Assembly: GCA_026391915.1 (NCBI GenBank)
Contig: JAPLCZ010000257.1
Location: forward strand, 5,691 to 69,690
DNA: 64,000 nt
Source: Bacteroidota bacterium
GTDB lineage: Bacteria; Bacteroidota; Bacteroidia; CAILMK01
Reading direction: 5' to 3'
Part shown: piece after piece, positions 3,652 to 46,726 of the stretch
How the letters are laid out: the number at the start of each line of letters is the position of its first letter
How positions within the stretch are numbered: position 1 is the stretch's first letter
Program-made: the position numbers and the translations under genes
Notes under the pieces: generated by a model
Database searches by the model: none
Told to the model about the DNA's origin: nothing
What the model saw: only the letters and a program-made list of their open reading frames with translations

Positions 3652-6531
3652 ATGAGGAGAATAATTAGTCTTCTGGTGTCCTTACTTTGTTTTATTTCTG
3701 TTTATTCTCAGAAAACATCAACCATAAAAGGAGTAGTAAAAGACGCAACAACAGGTGAACCTTTAATAGGTGCTTCTGTAAGCTATGATGTAGGGAAAGG
3801 AACAATTACAGAGTTGGATGGCTCTTATAAATTAACGCTGGATACGGGGGTTTACACTTTCACAATTTCCTTTATTGGGTACGTGGAAACAACTGCAAAA
3901 GTTAAAGCAAATAGAAACACTGTAGTAGCGGATTTTACCCTAGACATCAAACCCATGAAAGAAGTAGAAATTGTGGGAGACGTGGCAAAAATAAGGGAAA
4001 CTCCTGTGGCATTTGCCAACGTAAATGCACAACAAATAAAAGAAGAATTAGGTGCAAGAGATTTACCCATGCTCTTGAATAGTACCCCAGGCGTATATGC
4101 AACCCAAACTGGTGGTGGCAAAGGAGATTCACGAATTAATATTCGTGGGTTTGACCAAAAGAATGTTGCGGTAATGGTGGATGGCGTACCCGTAAATGAT
4201 ATGGAAAATGGCTCAGTGTTTTGGAGTAATTGGGAGGGGCTTGGTGATGTAACTCGCAGCATGCAAGTACAGCGCGGGTTAGGCGCTTCCAAACTTGCAA
4301 TTCCCTCAGTAGGTGGTACCATAAACATTATTACAAAAGGAATAGAATCCAAACCTGGAGGAAGCATAAGACAAGAAGTTGGTAGTTTTGGATTTGAAAA
4401 AACTTCCTTTGGCTACACTACAGGGCTTATCAATAAGAAATTTGGAGTTACTGTGGCAGGAAGCCATAGCACTGGCAACGGATATGTTGACCAAACCAAT
4501 TTTACTACCTGGAGCTACTTTGTAAAAGTGCAATACATTGCAGGCAAACACCTATTAAGCCTTGGAGGAAACGGCTCTCCACAACAACATCAGCAAAGGT
4601 CATTTTCTCAGCCAATGCCAGTGTTTGATAAAGCTTATGCAAAGACCTTTGGCATTGACACAGACTCCTCTTTAAAGGCATCTGGTTTTAGCAATGCAAA
4701 CCATGATGACAGAGGTTTAAAATTCAATCCTTTTTGGGGTACTTTAACCCGTGATGGCAAAACAGAAAACCTGAACGAGAAGGTCAATTTTTACCACAAG
4801 CCCCAGTTCAGTTTTTCTGATAATTGGACTATCAATGATAAATTAACTTGGTTTAATATCGCGTATCTTTCTATAGGCAATGGTGGCGGTACACAACTCT
4901 TTAATACCGCTATTACCAGAGCCCCCGAAACAGGACAATACAACTTGCAACAGGTGTATGATAACCAGATTTCTGATAAGGCTATTGATAAGTTTTATAG
5001 TTCTACTTTTCACAAATCCAGCAACATAATTCTGGCATCTAACAATGACCACAAATGGTACGGATTGCTCTCTAACATTCAATATAAAATGAATGATAAT
5101 TTTACCTTTACAGGGGGCTTGGATGTACGGAATTATCAAGGCTCACATTATAGAACTGTGTACGATTTATTAGGTGGTAATTATTTTATTGACCAAGCCA
5201 ATAATAGCCAACCCAAGATATTAGCGCCTGTTGCCCCATCCACTACGCCACGCAATGCAGCATATTCCATGAAAACCACTTGGGATAAAATTGCCTACTA
5301 TAATGATGGCTTAGTAAGATGGTTTGGGCTCTTTACTCAGGCAGAATATAAGCGCAATAATTTCAGTTGCTTTGTTACGGTTACGGTTTCGGAAACGCAG
5401 TATAAAAGAGTAGATTATTTTGCCAAAAAAGACCTCATAATTAATGGTAAAAAAATCAGTCAGGCTGTTGGTTGGGGAGATACCATGCTTTATGACGGTA
5501 CACGTTCAATCACCTATAATCAAAACAATAATTCTCAGCTAAAAAAGAAAGGTGACACTACTTTTCTGGGAACTAAATATGTGGTGAATCCTAAATCTTA
5601 TACCATGAATTCTACTGAAGCCAATACGTCTTCTACAAATTGGAGAACCTTCTTTGGCTACACTATTAAAACAGGTGCTAACTACAATTTCAATAGCCAT
5701 TTTAATGCATTCCTAAACCTAGGATATATGAGTATGGCACCTCGCTTTAATAATGTTTTTGATAATAACAATCATGAGTTTTTTGAAACAAAAAATCAGT
5801 TTGTTAAAGCCATTGAAATGGGTTTTGGAACAAGGTATTCTGGCGTTGCCACCAACCTTAATCTGTACTATACTGATTGGCAAAATAAACCCTTGGATGT
5901 TGTTAAATCCTTCACCACTCCTGATGGTACTTTCTATACCAATATCAATGGGATGAATGCCATCCACAAAGGAGTAGAGCTTGACTTTGCCTATTCTCCA
6001 CTTCCTCGTTTAAAAATAGAAGGACTTGCTTCAATAGGCGATTGGAAATACAACTCAGCCAAGAAGGTTTACATCTATGACCAGTCCGATGTATTGCGTG
6101 ATTCCGTTGATTTTTCTGCAAAGAATGTTCATGTGGGCAACGCAGCACAATCACAATTTGGTTTGGGCTTTAGGTATGAGGTTTTCAAAGGTTTTTACAT
6201 CAAACCCCGCTTCACATATTTTGGCAGACAATACTCCGCTTTTGACCCCCTTGCACTCACTATAAACTATGATAGCAAAGGCAAGCTCATTAAAGATGAC
6301 CGCGACAGAGAATCATGGAGAGTGCCTGATTATTTTCTGTTAGATGTTTACACCGGCTACGAAATTTCTCTTTGGAAAATAAGGATGAGTATTACAGCAG
6401 GGGTTATCAATATCCTCAATAAAGAATACATTGCTGATGCTACCAATGGTGGTAGTTTTAATGCGTCTTCTTCCACGGTTTTCTTTGGTGGGCCAAGGCG
6501 GTTTCAGGTTGGGGTTGGGGTGTATTTCTAA
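3652..6531 (+). CDS. TonB-dependent outer-membrane receptor (N-terminal carboxypeptidase-regulatory-like domain plus plug plus barrel)
   Basis: Signal peptide. KGVVKDATTGEPLIGASV (CarbopepD_reg-like). Plug motifs (RDLPMLLNSTPGVYATQ, INIRGFDQKNVAVMVDGVPVND). 959 aa ending in an aromatic (...VGVYF). Confidence 0.85.
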   Translation: MRRIISLLVSLLCFISVYSQKTSTIKGVVKDATTGEPLIGASVSYDVGKGTITELDGSYKLTLDTGVYTFTISFIGYVETTAKVKANRNTVVADFTLDIKPMKEVEIVGDVAKIRETPVAFANVNAQQIKEELGARDLPMLLNSTPGVYATQTGGGKGDSRINIRGFDQKNVAVMVDGVPVNDMENGSVFWSNWEGLGDVTRSMQVQRGLGASKLAIPSVGGTINIITKGIESKPGGSIRQEVGSFGFEKTSFGYTTGLINKKFGVTVAGSHSTGNGYVDQTNFTTWSYFVKVQYIAGKHLLSLGGNGSPQQHQQRSFSQPMPVFDKAYAKTFGIDTDSSLKASGFSNANHDDRGLKFNPFWGTLTRDGKTENLNEKVNFYHKPQFSFSDNWTINDKLTWFNIAYLSIGNGGGTQLFNTAITRAPETGQYNLQQVYDNQISDKAIDKFYSSTFHKSSNIILASNNDHKWYGLLSNIQYKMNDNFTFTGGLDVRNYQGSHYRTVYDLLGGNYFIDQANNSQPKILAPVAPSTTPRNAAYSMKTTWDKIAYYNDGLVRWFGLFTQAEYKRNNFSCFVTVTVSETQYKRVDYFAKKDLIINGKKISQAVGWGDTMLYDGTRSITYNQNNNSQLKKKGDTTFLGTKYVVNPKSYTMNSTEANTSSTNWRTFFGYTIKTGANYNFNSHFNAFLNLGYMSMAPRFNNVFDNNNHEFFETKNQFVKAIEMGFGTRYSGVATNLNLYYTDWQNKPLDVVKSFTTPDGTFYTNINGMNAIHKGVELDFAYSPLPRLKIEGLASIGDWKYNSAKKVYIYDQSDVLRDSVDFSAKNVHVGNAAQSQFGLGFRYEVFKGFYIKPRFTYFGRQYSAFDPLALTINYDSKGKLIKDDRDRESWRVPDYFLLDVYTGYEISLWKIRMSITAGVINILNKEYIADATNGGSFNASSSTVFFGGPRRFQVGVGVYF

Positions 6532-8979: not shown

Positions 8980-10575
8980 TTACTCAACCACCAATTTACT
9001 AACGACCCTCACCTTCTCATTTTGTACTAAGATAAAATACATACCATCTGGCAATGCAGAAACATCTATTTCTTTAATGAGTCTGCCTTCTGAGTTTGGG
9101 GTTTGGTTGAGTTGTATAAGTTGTTTGCCTAGTATATCTGAAATAGTAATACTGGTGTTGGTTTGCGGTAGATTATTTACTTCTAAAGTTATGGTGGAGG
9201 TTGTAGGGTTGGGGTAAAAAATAAAATTAGAAAAAGTTTTGGATTCTTGTACGGCAGTGGTTGAATCTCCTAAATAAGCAATATAAACATTCTTATTTGC
9301 TGGAAAATTGGTGGTATCTGTAGAATCACGAATTGAACCACCAAAAACATATATGCCATTGCCTAATGAAACTGAGCAATTACTTATACTACCTTGACCA
9401 ACTCCTTTTTTAGAAATAATATTACCTTGATTATTTAAATTTAAAAGGCAGATATAATGATTGCCGAATGTTGCAAAATCAGAATCTTTGCTGTAAACCA
9501 AACAAGAAACAATATAACCACTATCATCATCTAATTCTACAGAAATGGCATAATCACTATGTGTACTACCATAAGATTTAACCCACTCCTTTTTTCCATA
9601 TCTATCTACCTTTACAATAAAGGCATCTGTATAACCTAAATTATTCTTTAAATCTCCATCATTGGAAAGAGTATATCCAACGGCGATGTAACCCTTGTCT
9701 TTGGTAATTTTCACATCTGTGAAGACATCCTCGCCAGCCCCACCATAGGCATAACCCCAAAGTTTATTTCCGTTTTTATCCAGTCTAATAAGCCATCCAT
9801 CCCCACCCCAATGAACATTTTTTACCACACTATCATACTGAGACGACCCGTTTGCACAAACTATAAATCCTGAATCCTGAGTAACTAATATCTTTTCCGC
9901 ATATTCATAAGTACTAGTACCATAAGTTTTTTGCCAAAGCATTTCGCCAATTTTATTTAATTTAATAATCCAGATATCAGCACTTATATAATGATATTTC
10001 ACATCACCACTATCTGATTTTGTATATCCGGCGAGAACTATTCCACTATCTGGTGTTATTGCAACAGCATAAGGTTCATCTTCTTGATAACCCCCGTAAG
10101 TTTTCTGCCAAATAATACTTCCATTTCTATCTAACCTGAGAATCCAAAAATCAGCACTACCTAGATGACGCGTTATATCACCATCACCCGAATAAGAACT
10201 CCCCACAACTATATAACCACTATCTTTGTATAATATTATAGAAGTAATGTATTCTTGATTGCTTCCTCCATAGGTTTTCTGCCACTCCATTTTCCCCTGA
10301 TTATCTAATTTAATAAGCCAATAATCCCCATGATAATAGTCATCGCTTCCAGTGTCATGAGAGTAAGAAATATCCTTATCATTTGAGTAGGTTACGCAGC
10401 CAGCTAATATGCCACCATCTGGGGTAGCAATAATGCTTTGCACATAATCATCTTTAGAGCCTCCAAACTGTTTCTCCCAGATTACCTTTTTATTGTCAAT
10501 TGCACCATATCCATTGCTTACAAGACCAGCCATAATCATAAATAAACATAAAATTGGTTTTAGTCCGCTAACCAT
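8980..10575 (-). CDS. SBBP (beta-propeller) repeat protein with T9SS C-terminal sorting domain
   Basis: Signal peptide from the internal Met (MVSGLKPILCLFMIMAGLVSNGYG). At least 7 repeats of the WQKTYGGSxxDxxxSIxxTxDGGYIxxGxTxSxDGD type. C-terminal FIFYPNPTTSTITLEV...GMYFILVQ Por tail. The longer ORF-track start at 10641 would overlap the upstream gene. Confidence 0.65.
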   Translation of the reverse strand: MVSGLKPILCLFMIMAGLVSNGYGAIDNKKVIWEKQFGGSKDDYVQSIIATPDGGILAGCVTYSNDKDISYSHDTGSDDYYHGDYWLIKLDNQGKMEWQKTYGGSNQEYITSIILYKDSGYIVVGSSYSGDGDITRHLGSADFWILRLDRNGSIIWQKTYGGYQEDEPYAVAITPDSGIVLAGYTKSDSGDVKYHYISADIWIIKLNKIGEMLWQKTYGTSTYEYAEKILVTQDSGFIVCANGSSQYDSVVKNVHWGGDGWLIRLDKNGNKLWGYAYGGAGEDVFTDVKITKDKGYIAVGYTLSNDGDLKNNLGYTDAFIVKVDRYGKKEWVKSYGSTHSDYAISVELDDDSGYIVSCLVYSKDSDFATFGNHYICLLNLNNQGNIISKKGVGQGSISNCSVSLGNGIYVFGGSIRDSTDTTNFPANKNVYIAYLGDSTTAVQESKTFSNFIFYPNPTTSTITLEVNNLPQTNTSITISDILGKQLIQLNQTPNSEGRLIKEIDVSALPDGMYFILVQNEKVRVVSKLVVE

Positions 10576-10579
10576 GTTG

Positions 10580-11281
10580 TTATTTACATGGTGGTGACAG
10601 GATAGGATATGGTTCATTTGACCAAGGAAAATTAGTCTCACCCTTTTTTACAGTATATTGGCTTGGACAAATGATATTAAAACTACATCCCTTTTTCATG
10701 TAATTAGCTGAACAGGTAAATTTACCATCATTAGTAAAACCCTGTTTGACATAAAAAGAAATTTCTTCTCCACATTTTACTTCTATGCAATACTTCCAAC
10801 AATATGGTTCTTTTCTCTTAACAAAAGTTGTATTATCCAATATCAATTCTTTACTGGGGTCTTTTTTTATATACTTTTTTAATGAATCATAGTCATTTAT
10901 ATCCGAACAAATTATTAATTCTTGACTTGGCTCTCCAGACACTCCTCCCCATACCCCTCCTACCTTTTTATATGTTTGTATATTCAATGGGAAATTTTCA
11001 TAAGTGTCATATGTCAAGCAAACCTCAAACCCGACAAAGAATGAACTTTTGCCTGGTTGTATTTCAATATAAATATTGTTAGGTTTCGGGCATCCATTAT
11101 CATCAATTGTCATTTTAGTACCACCATAGTGAGTTATTGAGGTTGGGGCGCAGATTGTATTTATTCCTTGTGGCTCTGGTCTATTTTCCCCACACCCACA
11201 CCCGCAGTCCTCCTCAAAAGTACTTCTCCCATTGAATATATCATTAATCCTTGGGGTGTTTATGATATTAATCTTTCCCAT
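10580..11281 (-). CDS. Hypothetical Cys-rich protein (18 Cys, CGCGCG motif, no signal peptide)
   Basis: 233-aa ORF, 4 nt upstream of the SBBP gene and 5 nt downstream of the preceding ORF. No family recognised by eye. Confidence 0.5.
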   Translation of the reverse strand: MGKINIINTPRINDIFNGRSTFEEDCGCGCGENRPEPQGINTICAPTSITHYGGTKMTIDDNGCPKPNNIYIEIQPGKSSFFVGFEVCLTYDTYENFPLNIQTYKKVGGVWGGVSGEPSQELIICSDINDYDSLKKYIKKDPSKELILDNTTFVKRKEPYCWKYCIEVKCGEEISFYVKQGFTNDGKFTCSANYMKKGCSFNIICPSQYTVKKGETNFPWSNEPYPILSPPCK

Positions 11282-11286
11282 AATGC

Positions 11287-11997
11287 TTATGATTTATACA
11301 ACCTTGGTATCCACCTAAACATTACTTTGCCAGCACCAACAGTTATAGCACCAGCTAAGGCAGATATAATATCCAATCCCACTTGTGCGCTTGAAATAGT
11401 GGTATTTGGGCTTTCATCAAGTAGGCTTCTGCCACTTTGATACCCTAATAAAGCACCCTCCATAGCACAGGCTACCCATGTTTGTATGTTCATTCTGTTG
11501 TAAGCTGGATTACCGGGAGCAGGGTTGGTGATGTCGTTAAAAAAATTAGCCCAAGGTGCTACATTGTTATTTACCTCTTGAAACCAATATGTTACTGCTG
11601 CTTTGCCAATGGCGGTGGCTATAAATAGAGGTTTTTGCTGCTCAAGGCTTAAGCCTGATTTAGTGATATTATCTTCAACATCACCAATAAAATCTAATAA
11701 CGAAGCTACAGGTATTTGCAAAATACCCCTTAGCAAAGTTTCTGTTAAAGCATTTCCTGTGTATAATTCTGAATTAACATAGCCGTTAATAGAATTAGAT
11801 ATTACAGATTTTAATTCAATATCTGTAAGAGTAGTAGTTCCTGGTAGATAAAGAGGTTGCACATCAGCGTAAACCTGATTTATCAAATCCTGAATTGTAG
11901 TTGCAGGTGGCGGCGGAACGCCTAGTGCAACATTGCCCATTCCTGTCGCCCATTGTGTGCCAATGGATGTGTAAATGTTGATTGTTACTTGTGACAT
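11287..11997 (-). CDS. Hypothetical protein with glycine-zipper-like C-terminal hydrophobic segment
   Basis: 236 aa. The C-terminus VGLDIISALAGAITVGAGKVMF resembles small-xxx-small membrane-insertion motifs. No signal peptide. Confidence 0.5.
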   Translation of the reverse strand: MSQVTINIYTSIGTQWATGMGNVALGVPPPPATTIQDLINQVYADVQPLYLPGTTTLTDIELKSVISNSINGYVNSELYTGNALTETLLRGILQIPVASLLDFIGDVEDNITKSGLSLEQQKPLFIATAIGKAAVTYWFQEVNNNVAPWANFFNDITNPAPGNPAYNRMNIQTWVACAMEGALLGYQSGRSLLDESPNTTISSAQVGLDIISALAGAITVGAGKVMFRWIPRLYKS

Positions 11998-43000: not shown

Positions 43001-45193
43001 GCTTCTACTACTGTAAGTGGTAGCACAGCTAACTTACAAATCAGCGGTTCATTTACCGTAAGTGGTACTTGGAGCCACACTGCAGGAACAACTGAGTTTG
43101 TTTCTAGCAGTGCTCAAACAATTCCTTCTACTACTTTCTGGAATTTGAAAACCAATGGCAGCTCTACCAAATCTCTTGGTGGTGCAGTAACTGTAAATAA
43201 CCAACTTAACCTTGTAAGCGGTTCTACCCTTTCAATAGGTGCTAATACACTTACTATGGCTTCTGGTTCTGGCTTCAAAGGTACTGGTACTTTAACTGGT
43301 AGTTCATCTTCTAACATGACCTTTACCGGTTCTGGAAGTGCAACTATCCCTGACGTAAGTTTGAATAACCTTACTATTAACCGTTCTGGTTCTACTGTAA
43401 CTACTGGTGATATAACTGTAAGTGGTACTCAAACCATGACTGCTGGTACTCTTGCCATCGGTTCTGGTAAAACATTAACACTTAACGGTGCTATCTCTGG
43501 TACTGGTGCTTCATTAACTGGTGGTACTACTTCTAACTTAACAGTTGATGGTTCTGGCGCCAGCACTACAGTTCCTGCTATTAGCGGTGGTTTGGGTAAC
43601 TTCACTATTAACCGTGCTAATGGTATTACCCTTGGTGGTGCTATTACTGTTAATAATACGCTTGCTCTAACTAATGGTACTGTAAGCACTGCAGGTAACC
43701 TAAGTATGGCTGCTAATACTTTTGTAACTAGAAGCTCTGGTTCATTAAGTGGCACGCCTACATTAGGTAGCGGTATTAGCTATACTTATGGTGCTACTCT
43801 TACTACTGGTACTGAGTTGGCCTCAACAGCTAATAACTTCACAATTTCTACAGGTACTACTACATTAGGTTCTAACCTTACCTTGAATGGCGCATTTGCT
43901 AATAATGGTACAGGCTTTATCTTCAACAGCAAAAAACTTGTTCTAAAACAAGGTTACTCTGGTGCAGGTACATTAACCGGTGGTGGAACTTCAATGTTAG
44001 AAGTACTTGATGGTGGCTCTGCTACTATGATGACTATACCTTCTGTAACTTTAGCTGACCTTACTATAAATCGTGCTACTGGCTTTAACATCAGTGGTAA
44101 TATTACAGTAACGGATAGCGTAGGTATGGTTAATGGTATCTTCTTTACTGATACTACCAATAGCCGTAAACTTATCCTTAGCGGTGCTACTGCAAGGTTA
44201 AATGAAACAGCTACTTCTTATGTATATGGTACTGTAGAGCAAAGCAAAACTATCCCATTAAGCACTGCTACTAACTTTGGTAATATGTTATCAATTAAGG
44301 CAGTTACTACTTCTCCTGGTACTACTGTAGTAACAAGGAAAGACCAAGTAATTACAGGTTTATTATCTTACAATAACAAACCTGTAAAAGGTATGAATAC
44401 TACTTGGGATATTGTACCAACAACTAACACCAACCTTGGTGCTACTGTTACCTTCAAATACACTGATGCGCTATTGAAAAATATCGTTGAAAGTAGCTTG
44501 GATGTATATGTAAACCACGGTGCTGGTTGGGATTTGATGGGTACAGTTTCAAGAAACTCTACTACTAACACCATTGTAAGTAGGGCTACTTCTCACTTCT
44601 CTAACTTTACGTTGGGTGGTTCATTCAGCAATCCATTACCAGTTGAGCTTATCAGCTTTACTGCAAGCTTGAAGAATGAAGTTACTGCAGCTTTAGTTTG
44701 GAACACTGCTTCTGAAATTGATAACAATCACTTTGATGTTGAGAGATCAATTGATGGAGTAACTTATGTGAAAGTAGGTGAAGTTGCTGGGCACGGTACT
44801 ACTAATACTGAAAATAGCTATAGCTACGATGATCAGTTTGGTAATGTTGTAGCTCCAGTACTTTACTACCGCTTGAAACAAGTTGATAACAATGGTACAT
44901 CTACTTACAGCCCTGTGGCTAAAGTTCGCACTACAGAACGTGTTGACGGATTGAAAGTTTGGTACAATAAAGAATCTGATAAACTTTCTTCTATCATCAG
45001 CGTAAATACCTCTGACATCATTACTGTTAAAGTAACTGACCAAAATGGTAAAGTAGTTGGCGAAACTAAAACTCAGGTTAATAAAGGTAACAACACGCTT
45101 GAAATTGATATGAATGGTACTGCAAAAGGTATCTACTACTTCAACTACACAAGTGGTGCTGGCACTCAAGTTAAATCTGTAATGAAGTACTAA
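25097..45193 (+). CDS. Giant (~6,700 aa) T9SS-secreted repeat protein: about 10 tandem modules of right-handed parallel beta-helix (PbH1-type) plus CARDB/Ig-like domain, a distinct C-terminal beta-helical/Ig region and a Por secretion tail
   Basis: Signal peptide MKQFYSKGSLRTSIVAMMLLLLTTVSSYA. The ORF-track start at 24863 is an upstream in-frame extension without signal peptide. Module caps TPDIGADEF(T)P recur at nt 26561, 28283, 29956, 31613, 33386, 35114, 36874, 38644, 40320 and 42790. Each is followed by YCxGxxxVxxTxxNxGxxxLxSxxxKWWVDGxAQTxYSWTG (CARDB-like). The C-terminus GIYYFNYTSGAGTQVKSVMKY is a T9SS sorting domain. Confidence 0.85.
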   Translation: MKQFYSKGSLRTSIVAMMLLLLTTVSSYASFTPGNTYTINPSAAASSTNYLTFASAQSDLVSGTRADGGTANGPGISTSTTGNVTFSISDGTYTEQISFNNITGTSATRRVIFTSASADSTKVTLTAASQFSSTTNYTVRLNGADWVTFQKMTIKRTGTSTYANVVVITNGSNNTIIENCRISGRYQASVNPGQLYEDNGCIYSQTYAGMTDDTGTIIRNNRIRFGLNGICMGGTNQTTGEAGLQIYNNDIDSAGQIGVLLVYCKRVKIYNNRINFPNHTAATPQITMAMRVQNSDNLNIYNNNITLNSNGPTPNAFQLWSSNYGNIYNNWISVWGGSSAAIAQYFTSNTYMNYYYNNVVCNSTISVGTAFYVSGAGTHQKLINNNFVNSGGALVYRINSTGEFDSSNYNNHYGANSTNAYYYVGGTVYSTFAAWKSASSMDANSKNVNPVFTSSTDLHVNNAILNGAGRVRPGITTDYDGDARNTSTPDIGADEFSPPALDGGVTSVDAPLAGSFCAPSTQSVKVTIVNNGTTTLTSADVKWTVNGSSQTTYNWTGSLATGATAQVTLGSYSFTSGSLIYTVKAWTESPNAGTDGNANNDTNSYNVKSKMSGTFTIGGTSPNYASFSAAVADLTAYGVCGAVTFNVADGIYNEQLMLLPITGASSTNTITFQSTSGDSSKVSLQFPSLSGNSFNNYVINFQGGDWFTFKKMGIKRSGSALTYGALILMIGQANNNTITNCMLIGPKIGSTASGNEIVDCGYDPISGSTTGTDCNFNTVSNNYVKYGSTVFWFYTGGSGYQTGNVISGNIVDSGSYMGVYAYYSRRIKILNNTFTNHGYSNTSAYGLYTYYADSGIWIKGNRFTAVNMNGFTYGMYTYLANANSTGYENIIVNNMISVPGHTTTYYLEYLYCTGPTIIAYNNYHIYANTTISGGGTARYGLYVANGTASYPIVKNNNFTADQANTVYYVASTSYMGSGNSNYNNFWNNATTNLIYFGATYNTLTAYKFGASMDLNSVSVNPNYYAKDNLHVNATGINNKGTSSMNTWVSTLDIDGQARSSTTPDIGADEFTPVAQDASITAITAPGTTYCPGSTSVTATLKNLGTSSLTSVTLNWYVNASVQAPYVWTGTLASNASTNIVVGSYSFTSGTYAVDVATTNPNGTTDGNTSNDSVHKGSINQGILGTYTVGGVSPNYATITAALTYISGYGICGTTTLNIRDGVYAEQMIIPVIGGTSLTNRLIIKSESNDSTKVTFTWPSSAASTYNPVLHFNGADFVTVKKMTFTSSGTNPYGQGVYFSNQANWDSIANCNVSGPQYIGTNTYSAAFYSPANDYCNNNTLAYNSFKYGSYNYFYGNSTTRPTGNKFMYNNIDSTYYIALYFLYHNNIRVVGNKIRYPGYNYSSGGNYGLYLLYNDSGLRVQNNFIYTPLVSNTYSYYAIYLGYSVNPSNNPGIVSNNWVSTVSASTISYGSALYMVGNSYVNVVYNSFLSWGANNTSGTGSGTYYHNSSGGGNNQFLNNICANTGGGYAVYEAIPGYWDRWNYNNLYTNGSNLTYWNGTNYTTLAAHKSGSGVDSNSVSVNPNFYGVTDLHTNSAGVNNLGKALAYVTTDYDGQTRSASTPDIGSDEFTPTNSDASINSIVSPATSYCAGTQNVNVALKNVGAFTLTSVSIKWYVNGTAQTPYVWTGTMTSGNSTTVTVGTYSFTSGTYVVAASSELPNGNPDNNTANDSAYTPTLNMGISGTLTVGPSGTYSTINAAMLDLKTNGICGNVVISVQDGVYAEQLDFDATYATSASNTITVQSASGDSSKCWIKWVASNVATNNFAIRFSGAKYITIKKMGISRTGASTDPYFYTLVMQGGSTYCKVNNCHIIGNTNYSNYTIYYYQNGTGLGNEITNTRIRYGYGMYLYGNTGSYEKYWTLTGNIWDSTYYGMGLYYYLDAPNISYNTVNGGANASNSTYYGAYLYYMQNSVGDYVGKFVGNKIICGPTAYYGIYESYSQSATKNIYLTLIANNMVICPSTNSAMNYLWYSYYNNNRRYYHNSLNNLGTYASCYTWYVYENATNSNIFTNNITSVTGNTANYGIGYFYYIGGSNYNDFYTNSSNFAYYNGTLYSTFAAWKTATSFDANSLAKDPGFLGATDLHASSPYINNAGTPLSAVTTDFDKQTRSTTFPDMGADEFTIPNTDAGLVSIDSPYTTSYCPGVHNVKATMKNFGLNGLSSATIKWWVDGVAQTDYSWTGSAVSNGSTVAINFGTYNFPGTGTHSVMCKVTNPNGTTDGNSANDSLAKTGMNPAMTGTKTIGGSSPDYATFAAALVDLNLKGVCGSGITYNVRDGIYNEQLNFTTINGASPTCWVTFQSQSNDSSKAWLKWPTSTSSTATTHGIVNFNGSASYIKFSKLGMLRYGTGTGDYYSAMVSFGSQSVSNITVTNCYMANTNVATPYFYYGAVDGYYWISGIGNNIQVTNNVIKGRFYYGGVAIYGYNTWPTGINVSGNTIDSSYYYGTFIYYCNSVKYERNTLNLLYHGSAGYPYYGAYLYYIGNSVSDGATSVSYNKIIMDNTSTGTNYGIFFAYGYNGYTTGLINTKLSYVNNNIISMKNSSTGSNYGLYTYYNGKTIYYHNSINLYGGTSGVLYGWYWYPYTTGVGYSMRNNSIVTLGTSTCYIIYWPNASVTYGNSRCNNYYPMTGGSSYAYNGTTYNTIASYNTAIPSDSGSISVNPNYFSNTDLHTLSSSLNNAGNGSNGTWKASTYVTTDMDGATRNATTPDIGADEFTPPTDDAGATAITNPAGAYCIGTSTNVTITLKNQGTNSLSSTTVKWWVDGTAQTDYSWTGTLTAGSSTSIVIGTYTFSTGGSHTINAKTTLPNGTTDGYAANDSSGLVLSGNSLSAGTYTIGGTTPDYATFTLALAALTTKGICGAVTFNVRDGIYTEKLNVTAISGVSATNTVTFQSQSLDSTKAWLNWPANNTASTEYAIVFNGCQYVTIKKLGIKRTGSTTDYYSNGVNFTAGAVNNTLTNCHMISNINYPASSMMYSTANGQGNTVTNNRVRYAGYALRVDGTSTVYETNWNISGNIIDTCYYAGIFVTYLDAPKINSNTINGCTHAWPSGTWTQTFGISLSYVRNSQSAVVGEVKGNKIIMPSIPGTVTSYALYDVNSYSATSNNYPTVIANNMISTFSSSASYGQHGMYISSMSRRYVYYNSSNVGGSLTNSTAAPYGVYFLPGTTGIMNDFKNNCIVNTTGGYAVYMYYHNTSGTSRGGWNYNNYYAPNSTYWVYNGSTYTTFALWKAGSLSDSNSINVNPAFNSATDLHTASANLNAAGTIAQLPLITTDFDGQTRNATTPDIGADEYTPPTNDAAVTVITSPGVAYCTASATNVTATIVNNAATTLTTAVVKWWIDGTAQTNYSWSGSLTAGSSTSVTVGSYTFTTTPTTHTVDVKVTSPNGGTDNVLTNDSLRKGPLVQGIQGTKTIDGGGAGDYISFTAAVTDMQTYGLCGAITFNVTPGYYIEQVNLQNIGSSATNTVLFQGSTSDSTASVLYFSANATASPNYLVNFNGVSYVTFKKLCFQRLSTTAQTYGNIFTYVGGANNITVTNCHVVGNKNYQTTGTTSNSFYSTANGGANNKILNNRIRYQFLYIYGTGSNSPDIGWQISGNMIDSTYYYGMLMAYHDGFKIQNNRITGATVSSSPANPLNYGIYLQYYRNTQSVSANQITGNRIYIPYYNTTCYGMYCIYSGTSYVTTNTYPTLIANNQVSIGYASASAVTGMYIYLGQRQLVYHNSINLFAGTGTSYGLYVYGQNTSQTTNNFYVRNNIVANKQTGASEYNIYNYYTYSRTNCFYSTGSTNNYFVNNGTTYSTLALYKAGTGSPDSSSVNGSNPNFFGNNDLHTTASISSNAGTGNGTYGKDNTGTTVNSLVGTDLDGETRTAATPDIGADEYSIPVNDIGVAITSPTTSYCSGSTSNVTATISNIGTNSLTSGTVKYYIDGVAQTNYIWSGTLATNATTSVVIGTYTLTTGSHVLQAKGKSPNGTTDDYSTNDSTYTGSMTAALGGTKTIGGTTPDYTTFTLAVADLLSKGVCSTLIFSVRDGVYSEAITLTAIPGASATNTVTFQSQSLDSSKAWLSQPASTSLSSIVILTNVSYVRFNKLGFIRPGTSSQYFQNCIYFNGVNGLGVQITNCLLVGNKANTSVTSSYTGNYSQMIASYVSTSSNNNGAFINNNKLRYGPITIYNAGYSTTTISEGNWIITNNIIDSPMYYGIYAFGLDTFKINGNRLNFANGLPYTVYGMYIYYPKNTTNATYGRNNELKGNKLYWPGYYTTEYGMYYYYGYSQTNNRPTIIANNMITISAGTGTGYGCYMYYDSKIHFYHNTINTVAGGTGSYSFYYYNPSPTSNTTYPAYVRNNIFNNVAGVTYMMYMYGRPVSIDYNNYYYTGANLGYDAYNGYAYSTFALWKAAVSGTYFQRPDSNGTNNLPQFVSNSDLHNSASSLNNTGGIYSGGVASIWNAYANTDYDGTTRSATTPDVGADEFTPPAEDVKMMSADTPGNSYCASATPRNVWITIKNNGTNNLTTATIKWWVNGTAQADYNWTGTITPGANSQLNIGSYVFNSGTYSMNFKSVTPNGGTDGNILDDSMAKPSIVPGGGGTYTIDAAGGGNYTTFSAAVSDLLTNGLCTPATYNVVNGVYNEQVNITAISGANATNTILFQSVSNDSSKVFITFNGNTAVAASNYALNFNGCSYVTFKGISVQRVGTSAQTSSNVVQFTNNAKSNVFRNGMIVANRNAYASSIAVYGNLSYYGNTVMNSRIRYGRGLYILGNSAVYETNWVLTGNILDSSYSTSTSYGAIHLSYLDAPTVSNNTINGSTLYGGTGTGILMNYVRNNQSNYAGTITRNTMTLINGNYGIYDANSYNATNNNFPTLVANNIINIQGAGVAYGIFSTASKLREWYYNTVNMTNTNTSSYALYETYNTSTVRNMQWKNNIFANSGGGQAAFVHLPQGMNYNDYYTTNSTFGSYNGTAYATFALWKTGSTKDSNSLNVNPQFYSSSNGHVYNQSINGAATPIASIVSNDVDGQTRNATTPDMGGDEFDPPAQDATILAITNPNPGYYCAGTNTVTATIGNLGYNALTSMSVNWWINGIAQTPYAWTGTLSASATTSMSIGTYNFLSGNVYYIDMKVVSVLPSPDGNPTNDSMHQNLYSEGLNAGTYTINPSNPVSSTNYQTFTAVAYDLNNRGLCGAVVFNASDGVYTGQISLGAITGSSATNTVTFNGNTSDSNKVIMSFPAGSTYSAAGANVNYVVGFNGCQYVTFNKMTMRRTSTGTDYFATLVYFGGGSHNNTVSNCVIKGLYNNAYYSYDHVLISDGYTYYNTQNIVADTNNTIKNNLMRYGTYPFYIAGNSSSIATYESFGSITGNDIDSAYQYNYPYIAYTNRTKFNTNKLVWRSGSSYGVYAVSNANLQLNGNTLFDTLVSPSYGFYVTSNVSVSLNSNTITNASGYTNNNPIYFASNNGTMTANGNTLRQRSTGTYPFYFTSNTSTNTGTLSINSNTYILNGTTSYPFYIASNTCPITMNGNTITQASTATTSSYFWYYYNNTGSTNLIQSNTISHNATGASYILYTQSNTGLTVRKNTITSSASHSYSVYATSNNAMTFDTNTITTSAAATYLAYFPTLQDLAFNGNILTNGFTQTGVAYLNTLTTSTRSISIQGNKFLNTSASSGSYIVNAGAITGSSTYVALIANNMFIAATATALSSFYHPSSASSYINFYHNTVRGSTTSTTVGSATTPMFFYTSTTSSNINVKNNIFANMSSGYVYYRYNMATSDYNDVYANNSASYNMAVNGTGYATLAAAKTAGYETNSVSVNPQFTSASDLHISTSTTPCAIHHKGVSGLGVAYDYDAGVRNTNPDLGADEFTVASGNGGQWTGSINTNWFTTGNWCDDVVPTSSTNVTVPSGLVSYPNIDTGTAVCNNYTINSSASTTVSGSTANLQISGSFTVSGTWSHTAGTTEFVSSSAQTIPSTTFWNLKTNGSSTKSLGGAVTVNNQLNLVSGSTLSIGANTLTMASGSGFKGTGTLTGSSSSNMTFTGSGSATIPDVSLNNLTINRSGSTVTTGDITVSGTQTMTAGTLAIGSGKTLTLNGAISGTGASLTGGTTSNLTVDGSGASTTVPAISGGLGNFTINRANGITLGGAITVNNTLALTNGTVSTAGNLSMAANTFVTRSSGSLSGTPTLGSGISYTYGATLTTGTELASTANNFTISTGTTTLGSNLTLNGAFANNGTGFIFNSKKLVLKQGYSGAGTLTGGGTSMLEVLDGGSATMMTIPSVTLADLTINRATGFNISGNITVTDSVGMVNGIFFTDTTNSRKLILSGATARLNETATSYVYGTVEQSKTIPLSTATNFGNMLSIKAVTTSPGTTVVTRKDQVITGLLSYNNKPVKGMNTTWDIVPTTNTNLGATVTFKYTDALLKNIVESSLDVYVNHGAGWDLMGTVSRNSTTNTIVSRATSHFSNFTLGGSFSNPLPVELISFTASLKNEVTAALVWNTASEIDNNHFDVERSIDGVTYVKVGEVAGHGTTNTENSYSYDDQFGNVVAPVLYYRLKQVDNNGTSTYSPVAKVRTTERVDGLKVWYNKESDKLSSIISVNTSDIITVKVTDQNGKVVGETKTQVNKGNNTLEIDMNGTAKGIYYFNYTSGAGTQVKSVMKY

Positions 45194-45230
45194 TTCCTCT
45201 TATCTAAGAAGAGAACTTAATATATCTTCA

Positions 45231-45271
45231 GAAGCCCTCCCGATTCATTTCGGGGGGGCTTCTTGTTTTAT
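45231..45271 (+). terminator. Putative intrinsic terminator of the giant gene
   Basis: GAAGCCCTCCC-gattcatttc-GGGGGGGCTTC (11-bp stem with one G-U) followed by TTGTTTTAT, 35 nt after the stop. Confidence 0.5.
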
Positions 45272-45311
45272 AGGCATTGGGCAAGGTGTTAATGACAGGG
45301 CTATTTTTTAG

Positions 45312-45621
45312 CCTCACCCCAAAAAAACCTCATCCGTCCTTTGGACACGTTTGCTGCGCAGAACCCTTTGGGTTTCTCCAAAGGAGAAGGAAACTGCCTC
45401 CGAAGTAACCCTAACTGTAAGTTAGGTGGCGGTAAAGTCCTCTCCTTTGGAGAGGATTTAGGTGAGGTTGAAACTTGCCAATTGTTGTCATCACCCTTCT
45501 CTTTTTTAAGACCTCACCCCAACCCCTCTCCAAAAGAGAGGGGCAAGAAAAAAGAAATGCACCATCAAGTTGGCAGGGGGTAAAGTCATTCTCCTTTGGA
45601 GAAGGATTTAGGATGAGGTAA
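45312..45621. repeat. Two tandem composite palindromic elements bounded by CCTCACC...GGTGAGG inverted termini
   Basis: Internal perfect palindromes: TTCTCCAAAGGAGAA (45374), TCCTCTCCTTTGGAGAGGA (45439), CCCCTCTCCAAAAGAGAGGGG (45518), TTCTCCTTTGGAGAA (45586). A 41-bp direct repeat GGTAAAGTC...GGATTTAGG(T/A)TGAGGT occurs at 45431 and 45581. Confidence 0.6.
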
Positions 45622-45769
45622 TAGCCAGCAACTGTCATTAACTACGGGAATGAACCTTAGGGTAATGGTATCCTCATGGTGACAAAAACTCAGGGTGATA
45701 ACAAAACAAAAAAGCCGGGCTACTTTTAGTTTCACCCGACTTTCCTGATATGAAAAAATACTATCTTCC

Positions 45770-46726
45770 TTATAAATTTACTTCAATATCACCGGGTAAA
45801 TTGGGGTCAAGATTTTTTACAATAAGGTATCTGCCATCTGCCACATTGCCCAGTTGCGGTGCATGAACCACAATGTTTGATACCCTTGGAGGCACATCAA
45901 AAAACACAGTTGGGTTAGTTTCGCCTTTTTCATGTGCAATATATACACGCAGCGTAGCATCGCTAATGTTGCTGAAATAAGCATCATCGGTTGTTTTGAA
46001 ACTGTGTTTGCAAATGGTAAAAACCTGCCCACCATTTAAGTGTTTGGTAAATGTTTTTTGTGGCTTTTGTTGCAGGGTTTCCATATCAAAGAAATTGGTG
46101 ATGGGGTCCAGATTATCACTGTATTGCATAATCAAACCACCATAAACATATTGCAAAGCATTAGCAATGGTAGTGCATATATTGGTTACGGTGCCACTAT
46201 CCTGCCCACCGGTGCTAATGTTACCTTGCTGGGTGTTGTAGGCAAGTAGCAATAAATCATAATAGGCATCAACATCAGTCTTAACAAGATTGAGTAGAGG
46301 GTAATTTCCTAAAACAATACTTAAGGAGTGTACTGCCCCAAGTCGGTCAGTTTGTTTGCCTTGGGTAAAGGGGTTGTGCCCATTGGCAAAAATGATTTTG
46401 TATTCATCTGTAAAATCCCTGTAGGTTTTCTGAATTTCAAAGTCCCAGTCGTTCACTTTTTGGGTGAGCCCTTTTAAAAGATTTTTCTTGGCGGTGGTAC
46501 TACCCACCTTAACATTTGTTTGCGCTACCCTGTTATCATTTGCATTGATTAGCAAAAGATGTTTGGGGTGGTAAAAATTGTAGAGCCCATCAATGGCGGG
46601 GCTAATGGTTCTGTTTGCCTCTAAGGCGGCATCTGAAAAAGAGCTAAGTTTAATAGCCCTAGTGAAACTTTTTTGGATGGATGCTTTAAAAGCATTCTTT
46701 GCTAAATCCGATTTTTTTGCTGTCAT
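45770..46726 (-). CDS. Hypothetical cytoplasmic protein (318 aa, no recognisable domains)
   Basis: Long ORF with coding-like composition, no signal peptide, convergent with the giant gene. Confidence 0.55.
   Translation of the reverse strand: MTAKKSDLAKNAFKASIQKSFTRAIKLSSFSDAALEANRTISPAIDGLYNFYHPKHLLLINANDNRVAQTNVKVGSTTAKKNLLKGLTQKVNDWDFEIQKTYRDFTDEYKIIFANGHNPFTQGKQTDRLGAVHSLSIVLGNYPLLNLVKTDVDAYYDLLLLAYNTQQGNISTGGQDSGTVTNICTTIANALQYVYGGLIMQYSDNLDPITNFFDMETLQQKPQKTFTKHLNGGQVFTICKHSFKTTDDAYFSNISDATLRVYIAHEKGETNPTVFFDVPPRVSNIVVHAPQLGNVADGRYLIVKNLDPNLPGDIEVNL

Follow-up and report, generated by a model that had tools for sequence, protein, structure and literature searches.

Palindromic repeat doublets dispersed across Bacteroidota share their ends with DUF559 endonuclease genes

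RESULTS

We found that two adjacent palindromic units downstream of a giant gene in a 64-kb stretch of Bacteroidota DNA (the window, by which we mean the whole stretch that was analyzed) have ends that match modules at more than 100 unrelated Bacteroidota loci, with 97 to 100% identity over 35 to 38 nt. Termini of the same type also bracket the gene of a DUF559 (Vsr-like, PD-(D/E)XK) endonuclease of about 130 aa, which is the sole gene of mini-elements of about 0.6 to 0.7 kb. The units are probably one decayed and one intact copy of a dispersed, noncoding, REPIN- or MITE-like palindromic doublet. Because those mini-elements have this module pair as their terminal inverted repeats, we read the doublets as their non-autonomous derivatives, much as REPINs relate to RAYT genes or MITEs to insertion sequences.

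Layout of the window locus

The repeat copies occupy the gap between two convergent genes, 3' of the terminator of the giant gene (Table 1). Both units end in CCTCACC...GG(A)TGAGG, and are assembled from modules with the consensus of a hairpin (CT-rich 5' half, GA-rich 3' half), 4 to 7 nt, and a GGTGAGG(C) box. The first-pass annotation had described palindromes and inverted termini here, and all of these elements are present in the sequence. The 41-bp direct repeat that it reported is also present (45431-45468 and 45581-45619), but it is imperfect, with three single-base indels and one substitution. We found 5 occurrences of TCTCCWWWGGAGA (at most one mismatch) in the window, compared with 0.19 expected from shuffles, and 4 of the 5 fall inside 230 bp at the repeat cluster. 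A profile search found no further copies of the repeat in the 64-kb window.

Unit 2 has the architecture of the 64 doublets that we collected elsewhere. Unit 1 has a perfect module B at its right end and a rearranged left end, where the hairpin stands apart from both box remnants. Its interior (45337-45434) had no match among 264 loci. The palindrome in its module B grows to an 11-bp stem, AAGTCCTCTCC/GGAGAGGATTT, including one G·T pair. The left hairpin of unit 1 forms an inverted repeat pair with 45586-45603 in unit 2, and the second box remnant pairs with 45611-45619 in the predicted RNA fold.

The whole cluster is enclosed by an outer inverted repeat (11+7 bp) that is unique to the window locus. 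Its score of 11 is above the 99th percentile (9) of non-cognate flank pairs. As a general rule for the family, targeting of preexisting palindromes was rejected, as flank complementarity at 48 doublets equaled that of non-cognate pairs.

Overlapping ORFs run across the units (45341-45583 on the plus strand and 45411-45638 on the minus strand) since most reading frames of the modules are free of stop codons. They had been dismissed as artifacts in the annotation, and rightly so: they matched no protein family. NCBIfam, which would include any domain models for Rickettsia palindromic elements (RPEs), gave no match to the window ORFs. The window contains no DUF559 gene, and the region had no match to plasmids by blastn. 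No orthologous empty site was found for the locus because the neighboring 318-aa protein has no homologue besides itself (P0121, "Bacteroidetes bacterium" MAG).

Table 1. Features of the repeat cluster and its flanks (positions in the window)
Feature	Position	Strand	Basis
Intrinsic-terminator-like hairpin and T-run of the giant gene (24863-45193), upstream of the cluster	45230-45263	+	14 pairs, 9 G-C, then TGTTTT
Left arm of the outer inverted repeat enclosing the whole cluster (GTTAATGACAG + GGCTATT)	45288-45305		Inverted-repeat scan
Unit 1, degenerate doublet, 158 bp, GCCTCACCCC ... AGGTGAGGT	45311-45468		Sequence
Unit 1 left terminus, (G)CCTCACCCC	45311-45320		
Unit 1 left terminal box CCTCACCCC, complement of GGGGTGAGG, without adjoining hairpin	45312-45320	-	Sequence and repeat analysis
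Second box remnant CCTCATCC, 8-nt box type, complement of GGATGAGG (45611-45618)	45328-45335	-	Sequence
Left-type hairpin TTCTCC-AAA-GGAGAA, partial module without adjoining box	45374-45391	-	nhmmer module profiles, E = 0.004, hairpin portion only
Palindrome TTCTCC-AAA-GGAGAA	45374-45388		
Module B, unit 1 right end, AAGTCCTCTCC-TTT-GGAGAGGATTT-A-GGTGAGG-T	45435-45468	+	nhmmer, E = 2e-13
Palindrome CCTCTCC-TTT-GGAGAGG	45439-45455		
Unit 1 right terminus, GGTGAGGT	45461-45468		
42-bp spacer separating the units, outside the repeat family	45469-45510		No match in any fetched locus
Unit 2, canonical boxes-outward doublet, 109 bp; module A left, 8-nt-box module B variant right	45511-45619		Sequence, nhmmer
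Unit 2 left terminus, (A)CCTCACCCC	45511-45520		
Module A, unit 2 left end, CCCCTCTC-TTTTG-GAGAGGGG-TTGG-GGTGAGG-T	45511-45543	-	nhmmer, E = 2.8e-9
Palindrome CCCCTCTC-CAAAA-GAGAGGGG	45523-45543		
Module B variant, unit 2 right end, AAAGTCA-TTCTCC-TTT-GGAGAA-GGATTT-A-GGATGAGG-T	45582-45619	+	nhmmer, E = 1.8e-5
Palindrome TTCTCC-TTT-GGAGAA	45589-45603		
Unit 2 right terminus, GGATGAGGT	45611-45619		
Right arm of the outer inverted repeat (AATAGCC ... CTGTCATTAAC)	45620-45642		Inverted-repeat scan

The unit ends belong to a dispersed family of outward-facing doublets

The repeat is not single copy at the family level. An exact 22-nt variant, TCTCCTTTGGAGA(N)GGATTTAGG, occurred in at least 117 stretches of one-genome-per-species data; almost all of the matches listed were from Bacteroidota, mostly Mucilaginibacter. 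One MAG had at least 6 copies, and two others had at least 4 each. A looser pattern gave 60 viral-contig stretches. We found no description of this repeat family in the literature searched.

Module B of unit 1 was 100% identical over 35 to 37 nt to many of the collected loci (L numbers). Module A of unit 2 was 97% identical over 33 to 35 nt to L169, L055, and L150, and the module B variant of unit 2 was 97% identical over 38 nt to L153 and L094; this TTCTCC/GGATGAGG variant is also present in L103 and L066. Unlike the ends, the unit interiors had no match to the collected loci.

We identified 64 doublets in the fetched genome and viral loci, and the boxes faced outward in all 64 and inward in none. 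Doublets were mostly 79 to 123 bp long and typically consisted of one A-type and one B-type module, in proportions that are biased because the genome loci were picked with the module B pattern. The flanks of different copies were unrelated, except in orthologous or tandem cases. There was no target-site duplication at 50 doublets, where the flanks agreed only in a G...C that belongs to the element. The bases beside doublet ends tended to be inverted (TCG..CGA and TAG..CTA), not direct. The tetranucleotide GTAG immediately preceded the hairpin in some viral-contig copies only (L036, L053, and L046), and neither GTAG nor CGTC tags were found in the window or in the Bacteroidota modules.

Modules lie in frame within protein genes

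About 20 real modules of 178 (about 12%) were located well within open frames of 200 codons or more. The genes concerned encode IcmF, LeuRS, AspRS, a C39/ABC transporter, a MiaB-like protein, an amidohydrolase, and VapE. In IcmF, LeuRS, AspRS, and others, open frames of 420 to 1,319 codons run on through the modules. One IcmF site exists in two forms, with modules plus DUF559 in L072, L093, and L123 and with the doublet only in L111. In IcmF, the DUF559 ORF is in frame with the host gene, and the sequences beside it are modules and not parts of an intein or intron. Exact insertion junctions were not definable from alignments of the IcmF linkers, which are too variable.

The same termini bracket DUF559 genes

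DUF559 was encountered 4 times in the 117 loci chosen by DNA pattern. In L072 and L123, the ORF sits inside the module pair within IcmF, and in L093 it lies between two doublets. Among five free-standing DUF559 genes in named genomes, four had such ends on either side (L178, L179, L180, and L263); L264 was not enclosed in this way and had a doublet immediately downstream. Module B of unit 1 recurred without a mismatch, over 34 nt, at both ends of the DUF559 element of M. flavus and at the ends of DUF559 in IcmF.

For an unbiased test, we took 80 metagenomic DUF559 loci with protein similarity as the sole criterion, 70 of which had enough flank. The inverted repeat between the upstream and downstream flanks was above the 99th percentile of shuffles at 57 of the 70 loci, and 13 lacked significant termini. 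At 41 of the 70, it was above the 95th percentile of non-cognate pairs, and therefore the termini co-vary with the DUF559 gene. Watson-Crick hairpins of at least 7 bp were found in 30 of 47 arms defined by that repeat only, compared with 0.3% of shuffles. These terminal hairpins had 42 different stem sequences, and their stem base was a G·T pair (AAG...TTT) in 15 cases, A-T in 1, and G-C in 0. DUF559 relatives on metagenomic contigs of unassigned taxonomy have similar termini on both sides.

The DUF559 proteins matched Pfam PF04480 (E = 8e-32), and their profile matched PDB 3hrl (E = 4e-34) and PDB 3r3p (I-Bth0305I, "mobile intron protein"; E = 4e-5). Residues D61, E72, and D74 were invariant in 42 sequences. 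PHROGs and PADLOC gave no match to these proteins. The genes look single copy. Two Mucilaginibacter species have them in syntenic positions with 74% identity, a pattern more in keeping with vertical inheritance than with active transposition. We saw no DDE transposase between ends of this kind. Some DUF559 proteins carry the source names methylmalonyl-CoA mutase, LeuRS, RecG, or guanylate kinase.

The cluster folds stably, and the modules show no strand bias relative to genes

Folded as RNA, the single strands of the cluster were more stable than shuffles, as checked by fold prediction (z = -5.5 and -4.1 for the two strands). Unit 2 folded as DNA gave z = -3.4 and -2.7 against shuffles. The outward orientation of the boxes allows one strand to pair box to box in a terminal stem with two hairpins, and this was the predicted fold of unit 2 as single-stranded DNA.

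Rfam returned 0 matches in the window at gathering thresholds and only sub-threshold chance matches in 45150-45800. Of the single modules between co-directional genes, 24 lay on the same strand and 19 on the opposite strand in viral loci; in genome loci, the numbers were 11 and 17. We rejected a terminator or orientation-dependent role because the modules have no strand bias relative to neighboring genes. A terminator scan inside the cluster found only a weak 6-pair site (45461-45479), and the module hairpins are followed by a G-rich box instead of a T-tract.

The first-pass annotation had proposed a MITE-like insertion or a structured small RNA locus rather than a simple terminator. The case against a simple terminator is borne out by the lack of T-tracts in the modules and by the separate terminator of the giant gene upstream of the cluster. 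End modules that recur at unrelated loci, always paired outward and with unrelated flanks, likewise agree with a MITE-like insertion. The small RNA proposal was not supported, given the lack of an Rfam match and of strand bias, the occurrence of both orientations, and the in-frame copies in coding sequences.

DISCUSSION

We propose that the DUF559 nuclease may cut at the hairpin-plus-box ends after recognizing them, probably in the form of folded single strands or cruciforms. Copying by host repair or recombination would follow, as in homing, and the doublets would be either mobilized in trans or landing sites for the DUF559 gene. We infer mobilization by this nuclease, and mobility is read from distribution alone because no recent insertion or excision event was seen anywhere. 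To our knowledge, a lone PD-(D/E)XK nuclease of about 130 aa has no strand-transfer activity, and we know of no established transposon of this kind. The G·T pair conserved at the hairpin base may be a recognition feature for an enzyme derived from a mismatch endonuclease.

We considered it unlikely that the doublets spread by another route and that DUF559 is a free-standing homing endonuclease gene whose product cleaves empty doublets, with repair then copying the gene into the spacer, which would make the window units unoccupied homing sites. Vsr-like homing endonucleases are an established kind (PMC2677866), and the DUF559 profile is homologous to one of them, I-Bth0305I. This enzyme (PDB 3r3p) and the endonucleases of "fractured genes" are both Vsr-like homing endonucleases, and the partner protein studied here belongs to the same VSR/DUF559 clan (PMC3424549, PMC2677866). 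Also as in those systems, DUF559 is inserted within housekeeping genes and is present or absent at one site, with the IcmF site either occupied by DUF559 or holding the doublet only. In L072, L123, L178, L180, and L263, the gene occupies the doublet spacer, and co-conversion of flanks would be expected to make the termini co-vary with the gene. However, homing leaves the dispersal of doublets to unrelated sites unexplained, doublet spacers have no clear relation to the sequences beside the DUF559 ORF, and in L093 and L264 the gene is beside complete doublets and not within one. Unlike the genes of known Vsr-like enzymes, the DUF559 gene is neither in an intron nor between split-intein halves; it is in frame with a host protein or free-standing, and it is bracketed by hairpin-plus-box inverted repeats that also exist alone in many copies. 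Still less probable, in our judgment, is a classical REP/REPIN system in which a RAYT or TIRYT enzyme (Y1/HUH, IS200-like) encoded elsewhere mobilizes the modules and the DUF559 genes are passengers or land preferentially beside REPs. A REP is an imperfect palindrome of 20 to 40 bp with a GTAG (or CGTC) tag at one end, and REP/REPIN systems have tens to hundreds of copies per genome. The modules resemble REPs in being short hairpins with a conserved tag on one side, in forming inverted head-to-head pairs with a spacer (all 64 close pairs and unit 2 of the window), and in their many dispersed copies without target duplication, some of them intragenic (PMC3733652, PMC3337134). As for RAYT in REPtrons, the repeats also enclose an enzyme gene that is single copy and looks vertically inherited (PMC3337134, PMC3733652). 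Repeats beside TIRYT genes have a reported loose motif, GGGGWSAS, with which the box GGGGTGAG agrees, and GTAG directly precedes the hairpin in some viral-contig copies. In contrast, the module tag is GGTGAGG(C), 4 to 7 nt 3' of the hairpin, whereas the REP tag abuts the hairpin; the Bacteroidota copies lack GTAG and CGTC tags, and REPs are found mainly in Proteobacteria. The bracketed gene encodes a DUF559/Vsr-like PD-(D/E)XK nuclease and not a Y1/HUH transposase. With seven RAYT/TIRYT proteins as queries (from the supplement of PMC3733652), tblastn gave no match at E ≤ 0.01 in 1.78 Mb of module/DUF559 loci plus the window, whereas DUF559 was found 4 times in the 117 DNA-pattern loci and the termini co-vary with its gene. 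The top matches of a Y1 transposase profile search were non-Bacteroidota only, and two that we inspected have unrelated repeats. Two TIRYT loci that we looked at have GGGGACACCTTACTT repeats without a hairpin, unlike the modules.

A function for the host, whether as a small RNA gene, an mRNA 3'-end stabilizer, an extra bidirectional terminator, or a protein-binding site, is very improbable. The single strands do fold significantly better than shuffles, the stems co-vary across lineages with a G·T pair conserved on one strand, the window element is located 3' of two convergent genes in the gap between them, and the orthologous loci L148 and L160 share one conserved doublet. These points have to be set against the results with Rfam, the missing T-tracts, the giant gene's upstream terminator, and the absence of orientation bias. 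Unit 1 in the window has decayed, and in-frame copies in unrelated proteins together with bracketing of a nuclease gene are the behavior of a selfish element. The window copies are probably without host function. We give almost no credence to an ordinary MITE that derives from an insertion sequence with a DDE transposase and is mobilized in trans by it. Small noncoding elements of 79 to 160 bp with terminal inverted repeats (GCCTCACC...GGTGAGGC), many dispersed copies, and a longer coding element that shares the ends would all be as in a MITE. The doublets are not a classical MITE, however, because there is no target-site duplication (50 doublets) and the related coding element carries a small DUF559 nuclease instead of a DDE transposase. 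DUF559 is the only gene found repeatedly between such ends, and hairpin-plus-tag termini are typical of single-stranded-DNA movers or REP-like elements, not of DDE insertion sequences.

Two further systems invite comparison. In TIRtrons, a TIRYT gene is bracketed by terminal inverted repeats (GGGGWSAS) that are also moderately abundant as solo or dimeric copies, and the box fits their loose consensus. This resemblance is superficial, as the enzyme is of the HUH/Y1 type and the repeats at the two TIRYT loci differ as described above. We know of no dedicated transposase for RPEs, whereas a candidate partner gene (DUF559) exists here. Like RPEs, the present repeats are palindromes found between genes and in frame inside functional protein genes (PMC3733652). 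They add short peptide segments, in this case to IcmF linkers, LeuRS, and AspRS (the family, not the window copy). The RPE tag CGTC is absent here, and the phylum differs.

We therefore return to the reading of the doublets as derivatives of DUF559 elements. A wider version of it is possible but doubtful: the window units may be the non-autonomous form of a class of selfish elements for which we found no description, made up of DUF559 elements of about 0.6 kb with cognate, co-evolving hairpin-plus-G-box repeats that seed numerous short doublets across Bacteroidota, in the way that RAYT does with REPINs. In that version, doublets would also colonize the linkers of essential proteins in frame. 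For the 310-bp region itself, the practical consequence is that it is most likely selfish repeat DNA and not a gene, terminator, or small RNA locus, and ORFs called there should be discarded. Across Bacteroidota, the repeat creates spurious ORFs and odd "fusion" annotations, and it adds peptides of 10 to 50 residues, or a whole nuclease domain, to IcmF and aminoacyl-tRNA synthetases. If DUF559 drives the repeats, they would represent a second system of the REPIN-RAYT kind, independent of the first and based on another enzyme fold, and the large DUF559 family would gain a function. Such a system would also offer a tractable case of palindromic elements that invade coding sequences without destroying them.

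Two palindromic units lie between convergent genes

We found that the cluster at 45311-45619 consists of two adjacent units, each related to a doublet, i.e., an inverted pair of modules (a CT-rich/GA-rich hairpin and, 4 to 7 nt beyond it, a GGTGAGG box). This confirms the earlier observation of palindromic units at this site. The palindromes and inverted termini described in the first-pass annotation are present in the sequence, and the direct repeat that it reported between the units exists but is imperfect. The left part of unit 2 reads ACCTCACCCC-AA-[ CCCCTCTC CAAAA GAGAGGGG ], where brackets mark the hairpin, and the right part, after a 38-nt spacer, reads AAAGTCA[TTCTCC TTT GGAGAA]GGATTT-A-GGATGAGGT. 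The right end of unit 1 is perfect (AAGTCCTCTCC-TTT-GGAGAGGATTT-A-GGTGAGGT). The hairpin motif is 26-fold overrepresented in the window (5 observed versus 0.19 expected), with four of its five occurrences falling within 230 bp, at the cluster; a profile search found no other repeat copy in the 64-kb window. RNA fold prediction, proposed earlier as a check, found both strands of the repeat region to be more stable than shuffles.

The cluster occupies part of a 576-bp gap, which lies between convergent genes because the next gene is on the minus strand. The T9SS sorting domain of the giant ORF indicates that the source organism is a member of the Bacteroidota. The protein encoded by the next gene has an identical counterpart, annotated as hypothetical, in a "Bacteroidetes bacterium" MAG; a search found no other homologue. 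At the 3' end of this gene we noted by eye a weak minus-strand hairpin (45714-45740; GTCGGG ... CCCGGC, 15-nt loop, then TTTTTTGTTTTGTT), which a consensus terminator scan did not flag. A search for an empty orthologous site for the repeat locus found none.

A local inverted repeat surrounds the whole cluster (45288-45305, GTTAATGACAG plus GGCTATT, versus 45620-45642, AATAGCC ... CTGTCATTAAC). Such complementarity was absent from the flanks of 48 other doublets, and no fetched locus contained the sequence of this repeat. The surrounding repeat could represent an outer element or else a preexisting palindrome into which the units inserted.

Features of the window and of the fetched comparison loci (L numbers)
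Feature	Locus	Position	Strand	Details
Giant ORF	Window	24863-45193	+	6776 aa; T9SS (Por_Secre_tail) sorting domain at end
Terminator-like hairpin	Window	45230-45263		Strong; 3' of giant ORF
Unit 1	Window	45311-45468		158 bp; left side rearranged
Unit 1 box remnants (two)	Window	45312-45320 and 45328-45335		
Unit 1 left hairpin	Window	45374-45388		Unrelated sequence between hairpin and box remnants
Unit 2	Window	45511-45619		109 bp; clean
Next gene	Window	45770-46726	-	Convergent with giant ORF
A module				CCCTCTCC-TTT-GGAGAGGG-YNGG-GGTGAGGC
B module				AAGTCCTCTCC-TTT-GGAGAGGATTT-A-GGTGAGGC
IcmF ORFs with module peptides	L072; L093; L123; L111	2014-5970; 2116-6342; 1077-4910; 4271-7807		Fused isobutyryl-CoA mutase type; several Sphingobacteriales
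Leucyl-tRNA synthetase with modules	L087, L127			
Aspartyl-tRNA synthetase with modules	L170			
Further module hosts				C39/ABC exporter, MiaB-like enzyme, amidohydrolase, VapE-like protein
Bracketed DUF559 element, M. ginsenosidivorax	L178	3860-4531		
Bracketed DUF559 element, Hymenobacter aquaticus	L180	3921-4495		
Bracketed DUF559 element, GCA_900112255	L179			Own variant AAGTCCTCCCC-TTG-GGGAGGATTT-AGGCGGGGTC on both sides
Bracketed DUF559 element, M. flavus	L263	1306-2027		

The units belong to a dispersed family of doublets

A loose pattern (hairpin plus GGTGAGG) run on viral contigs returned 60 stretches, nearly all of the asymmetric form CCC-TCTCC-TTT-GGAGA-GGG-N3-5-GGGTGAGG. The exact 22-nt window variant occurred in at least 117 stretches, nearly all from Bacteroidota, in a one-genome-per-species collection, with at least 6 stretches in one MAG. 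Among the matches listed, Mucilaginibacter was by far the commonest genus; the others were Pedobacter, Parafilimonas, Chitinophaga, Ferruginibacter, Chryseobacterium, Epilithonimonas, Cyclobacteriaceae, Bacteroidales, and one Ignavibacteriales.

Using a symmetric module finder on the viral loci and on genome loci picked with the B-module pattern, we detected 64 close module pairs. The boxes pointed outward in all 64 and inward in none, the doublets were mostly 79 to 123 bp long, and the usual doublet paired one A with one B module. Flanks were unrelated between copies, except in a few orthologous or tandem cases, and the doublet is thus an interspersed repeat; the earlier "MITE-like" reading was essentially right. 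The window unit ends are 97 to 100% identical over 35 to 38 nt to more than 100 family loci, and neither the unit interiors nor the 42-nt gap between the units matched any of these loci. By sequence comparison, then, the window units are shown to be members of this family. The bases just outside doublet ends tend to extend the inverted repeat (TCG...CGA, TAG...CTA) and not a direct repeat.

One viral contig (L046, IMGVR_UViG_3300028586_000777, 10425-11881) carries five tandem units of ~335 bp, each containing a 119- to 120-bp doublet with GTAGC preceding the right hairpin; this is an array, not dispersed copies. Single modules are strongly co-oriented per viral contig (L036, 11/13 plus; L053, 5/5 plus; L009, 6/6 minus; L039, 4/4 minus). 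In L036 and L053, GTAG(C) lies directly 5' of the hairpin, a tag shared with classical GTAG REPs, which suggests a link between the doublet family and RAYT-type REPs outside Bacteroidota. A Bacteroidota module in a MAG labeled Bifidobacterium breve (L168, CALPQG020000214.1) probably reflects a misbinned contig.

Modules occur in frame within protein genes

About 20 genuine modules, out of 178, lie deep within open frames of 200 codons or more, whose products we identified by Pfam. Since the host frames remain open, the modules would be translated as peptides, e.g., LSKGEG, PSPKERG, and VLSFGEDLGEA. In IcmF, module-derived peptides sit in four interdomain linkers. In-frame genic insertion is likewise known for Rickettsia RPEs and some REPs (PMC3733652).

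A DUF559 endonuclease shares the doublet ends

In two IcmF genes (L072 and L123), a left A and a right B module enclose a complete in-frame domain of ~120 aa belonging to DUF559, a Vsr-like PD-(D/E)XK endonuclease family (PF04480, E = 8e-32). In a third (L093), an in-frame DUF559 domain lies between two complete doublets, and in a fourth (L111), a doublet alone occupies exactly the same site. Long and short forms of the element therefore exist at one orthologous position.

Searching proteins with the DUF559 core, we found 280 relatives at E <= 1e-10, mostly 120- to 200-aa "endonuclease domain-containing proteins" of Bacteroidota. Small DUF559 proteins are annotated in some sources as methylmalonyl-CoA mutase, LeuRS, MetH, RecG, or guanylate kinase (P0005, P0014, P0061, P0092, and P0093), names probably transferred from host genes with an inserted DUF559 domain. 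Among PDB structures, the DUF559 profile matches 3hrl at E = 4e-34 and, at E = 4e-5, the homing endonuclease I-Bth0305I (3r3p); homing endonucleases of the Vsr-like type form an established family (PMC2677866, PMC3424549).

Four of five free-standing DUF559 genes in named assemblies are bracketed on both sides by modules with boxes outward, and the fifth (L264) is directly followed by a doublet. The ends of the M. flavus element are identical to window positions 45435-45468 over 34 nt. We concluded from these sequence matches that doublets and DUF559 mini-elements have their ends in common. The genes of two Mucilaginibacter species, M. ginsenosidivorax and M. flavus, are 74% identical and syntenic (AA_permease, DUF5655, DUF559, K_trans), and the modules around them differ (A/A and B/B, respectively); thus, the gene has kept its place as its ends have turned over. 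The DUF559 genes look single copy, and in this and their synteny they resemble the RAYT genes of the REPIN-RAYT system, which are inherited vertically (PMC3337134). Inside the M. flavus element (L263), the DUF559 ORF lies between two copies of a direct repeat (AAAAAGCC..GAATCAACCYGGCAAA; 1392-1432 and 1940-1985), and in L179, tandem partial copies of AAGTCCTCCGCAAAGTG adjoin the variant modules (3790-3830 and 4445-4470).

For an unbiased test, 80 metagenomic loci were chosen by DUF559 protein similarity alone, 70 of them with enough flank, and 200 nt upstream of the gene was aligned to the reverse complement of 200 nt downstream. The inverted-repeat score exceeded the 99th percentile of shuffles in 57/70 loci and the 95th percentile of noncognate pairs in 41/70 (medians, 37 versus 19 for noncognate pairs). 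The termini vary widely by lineage (e.g., CAGCCCCCTCT..., AGCCTCCCC..., GACCCCACCCC..., and ATCCTATCCC...), and all variants share one plan: box, ~4 nt, hairpin. Among 47 arms defined by the upstream/downstream repeat alone, a Watson-Crick hairpin with 7 bp or more is present in 30, compared with 0.3% of shuffles. The stems comprise 42 distinct sequences, and the stem covariation is therefore real. At the foot of B-type stems, the pair is G.T in 15 cases, A-T in 1, and G-C in none. Across these loci, the mini-element ends are shown to coevolve with the nuclease gene, as judged from sequence.

Proposed mechanism and alternatives

We propose that the DUF559 nuclease would recognize the hairpin-plus-box ends and would then start copying via host repair. 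Because the strand-specific G.T pair is conserved and the stems covary, recognition may involve a cruciform or the folding of a single strand; Vsr itself nicks DNA at T/G mismatches (PMC3424549). Doublets would be mobilized in trans, be deletion derivatives, or serve as landing sites. A serious alternative, which bears on the direction of the relationship, is that DUF559 genes invade preexisting doublets as homing targets.

Movement by a RAYT/TIRYT-driven REP system appears unlikely: tblastn with seven RAYT/TIRYT sequences (PMC3733652 supplement) found no match in the window or in 1.78 Mb of module-containing and DUF559 loci, two TIRYT loci carry GGGGACACCTTACTT repeats without hairpins, and the GTAG and CGTC tags are absent from Bacteroidota copies. 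We consider it very improbable that the units are a structured RNA or terminator, since an Rfam search of the window gave no match, there is no T-run, orientation relative to genes is unbiased, and modules occur in frame within genes; the earlier small-RNA reading is thus unsupported. A classical DDE-type MITE is hardly credible, as we looked for target-site duplications at doublets and for a transposase and found neither.

We concluded that the element is a palindromic doublet of the REP/REPIN/MITE kind, in a new variant with a Vsr-like DUF559 nuclease as the partner gene; we found this family undescribed in the literature searched, which lacks most subscription journals. Among the loci examined, no recent transposition event was seen. 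Both window copies are situated beyond the terminator of the giant gene; one of them is decayed, and we saw no sign of a host function in either. The window locus is ordinary selfish DNA, and the wider interest lies in the doublet family.
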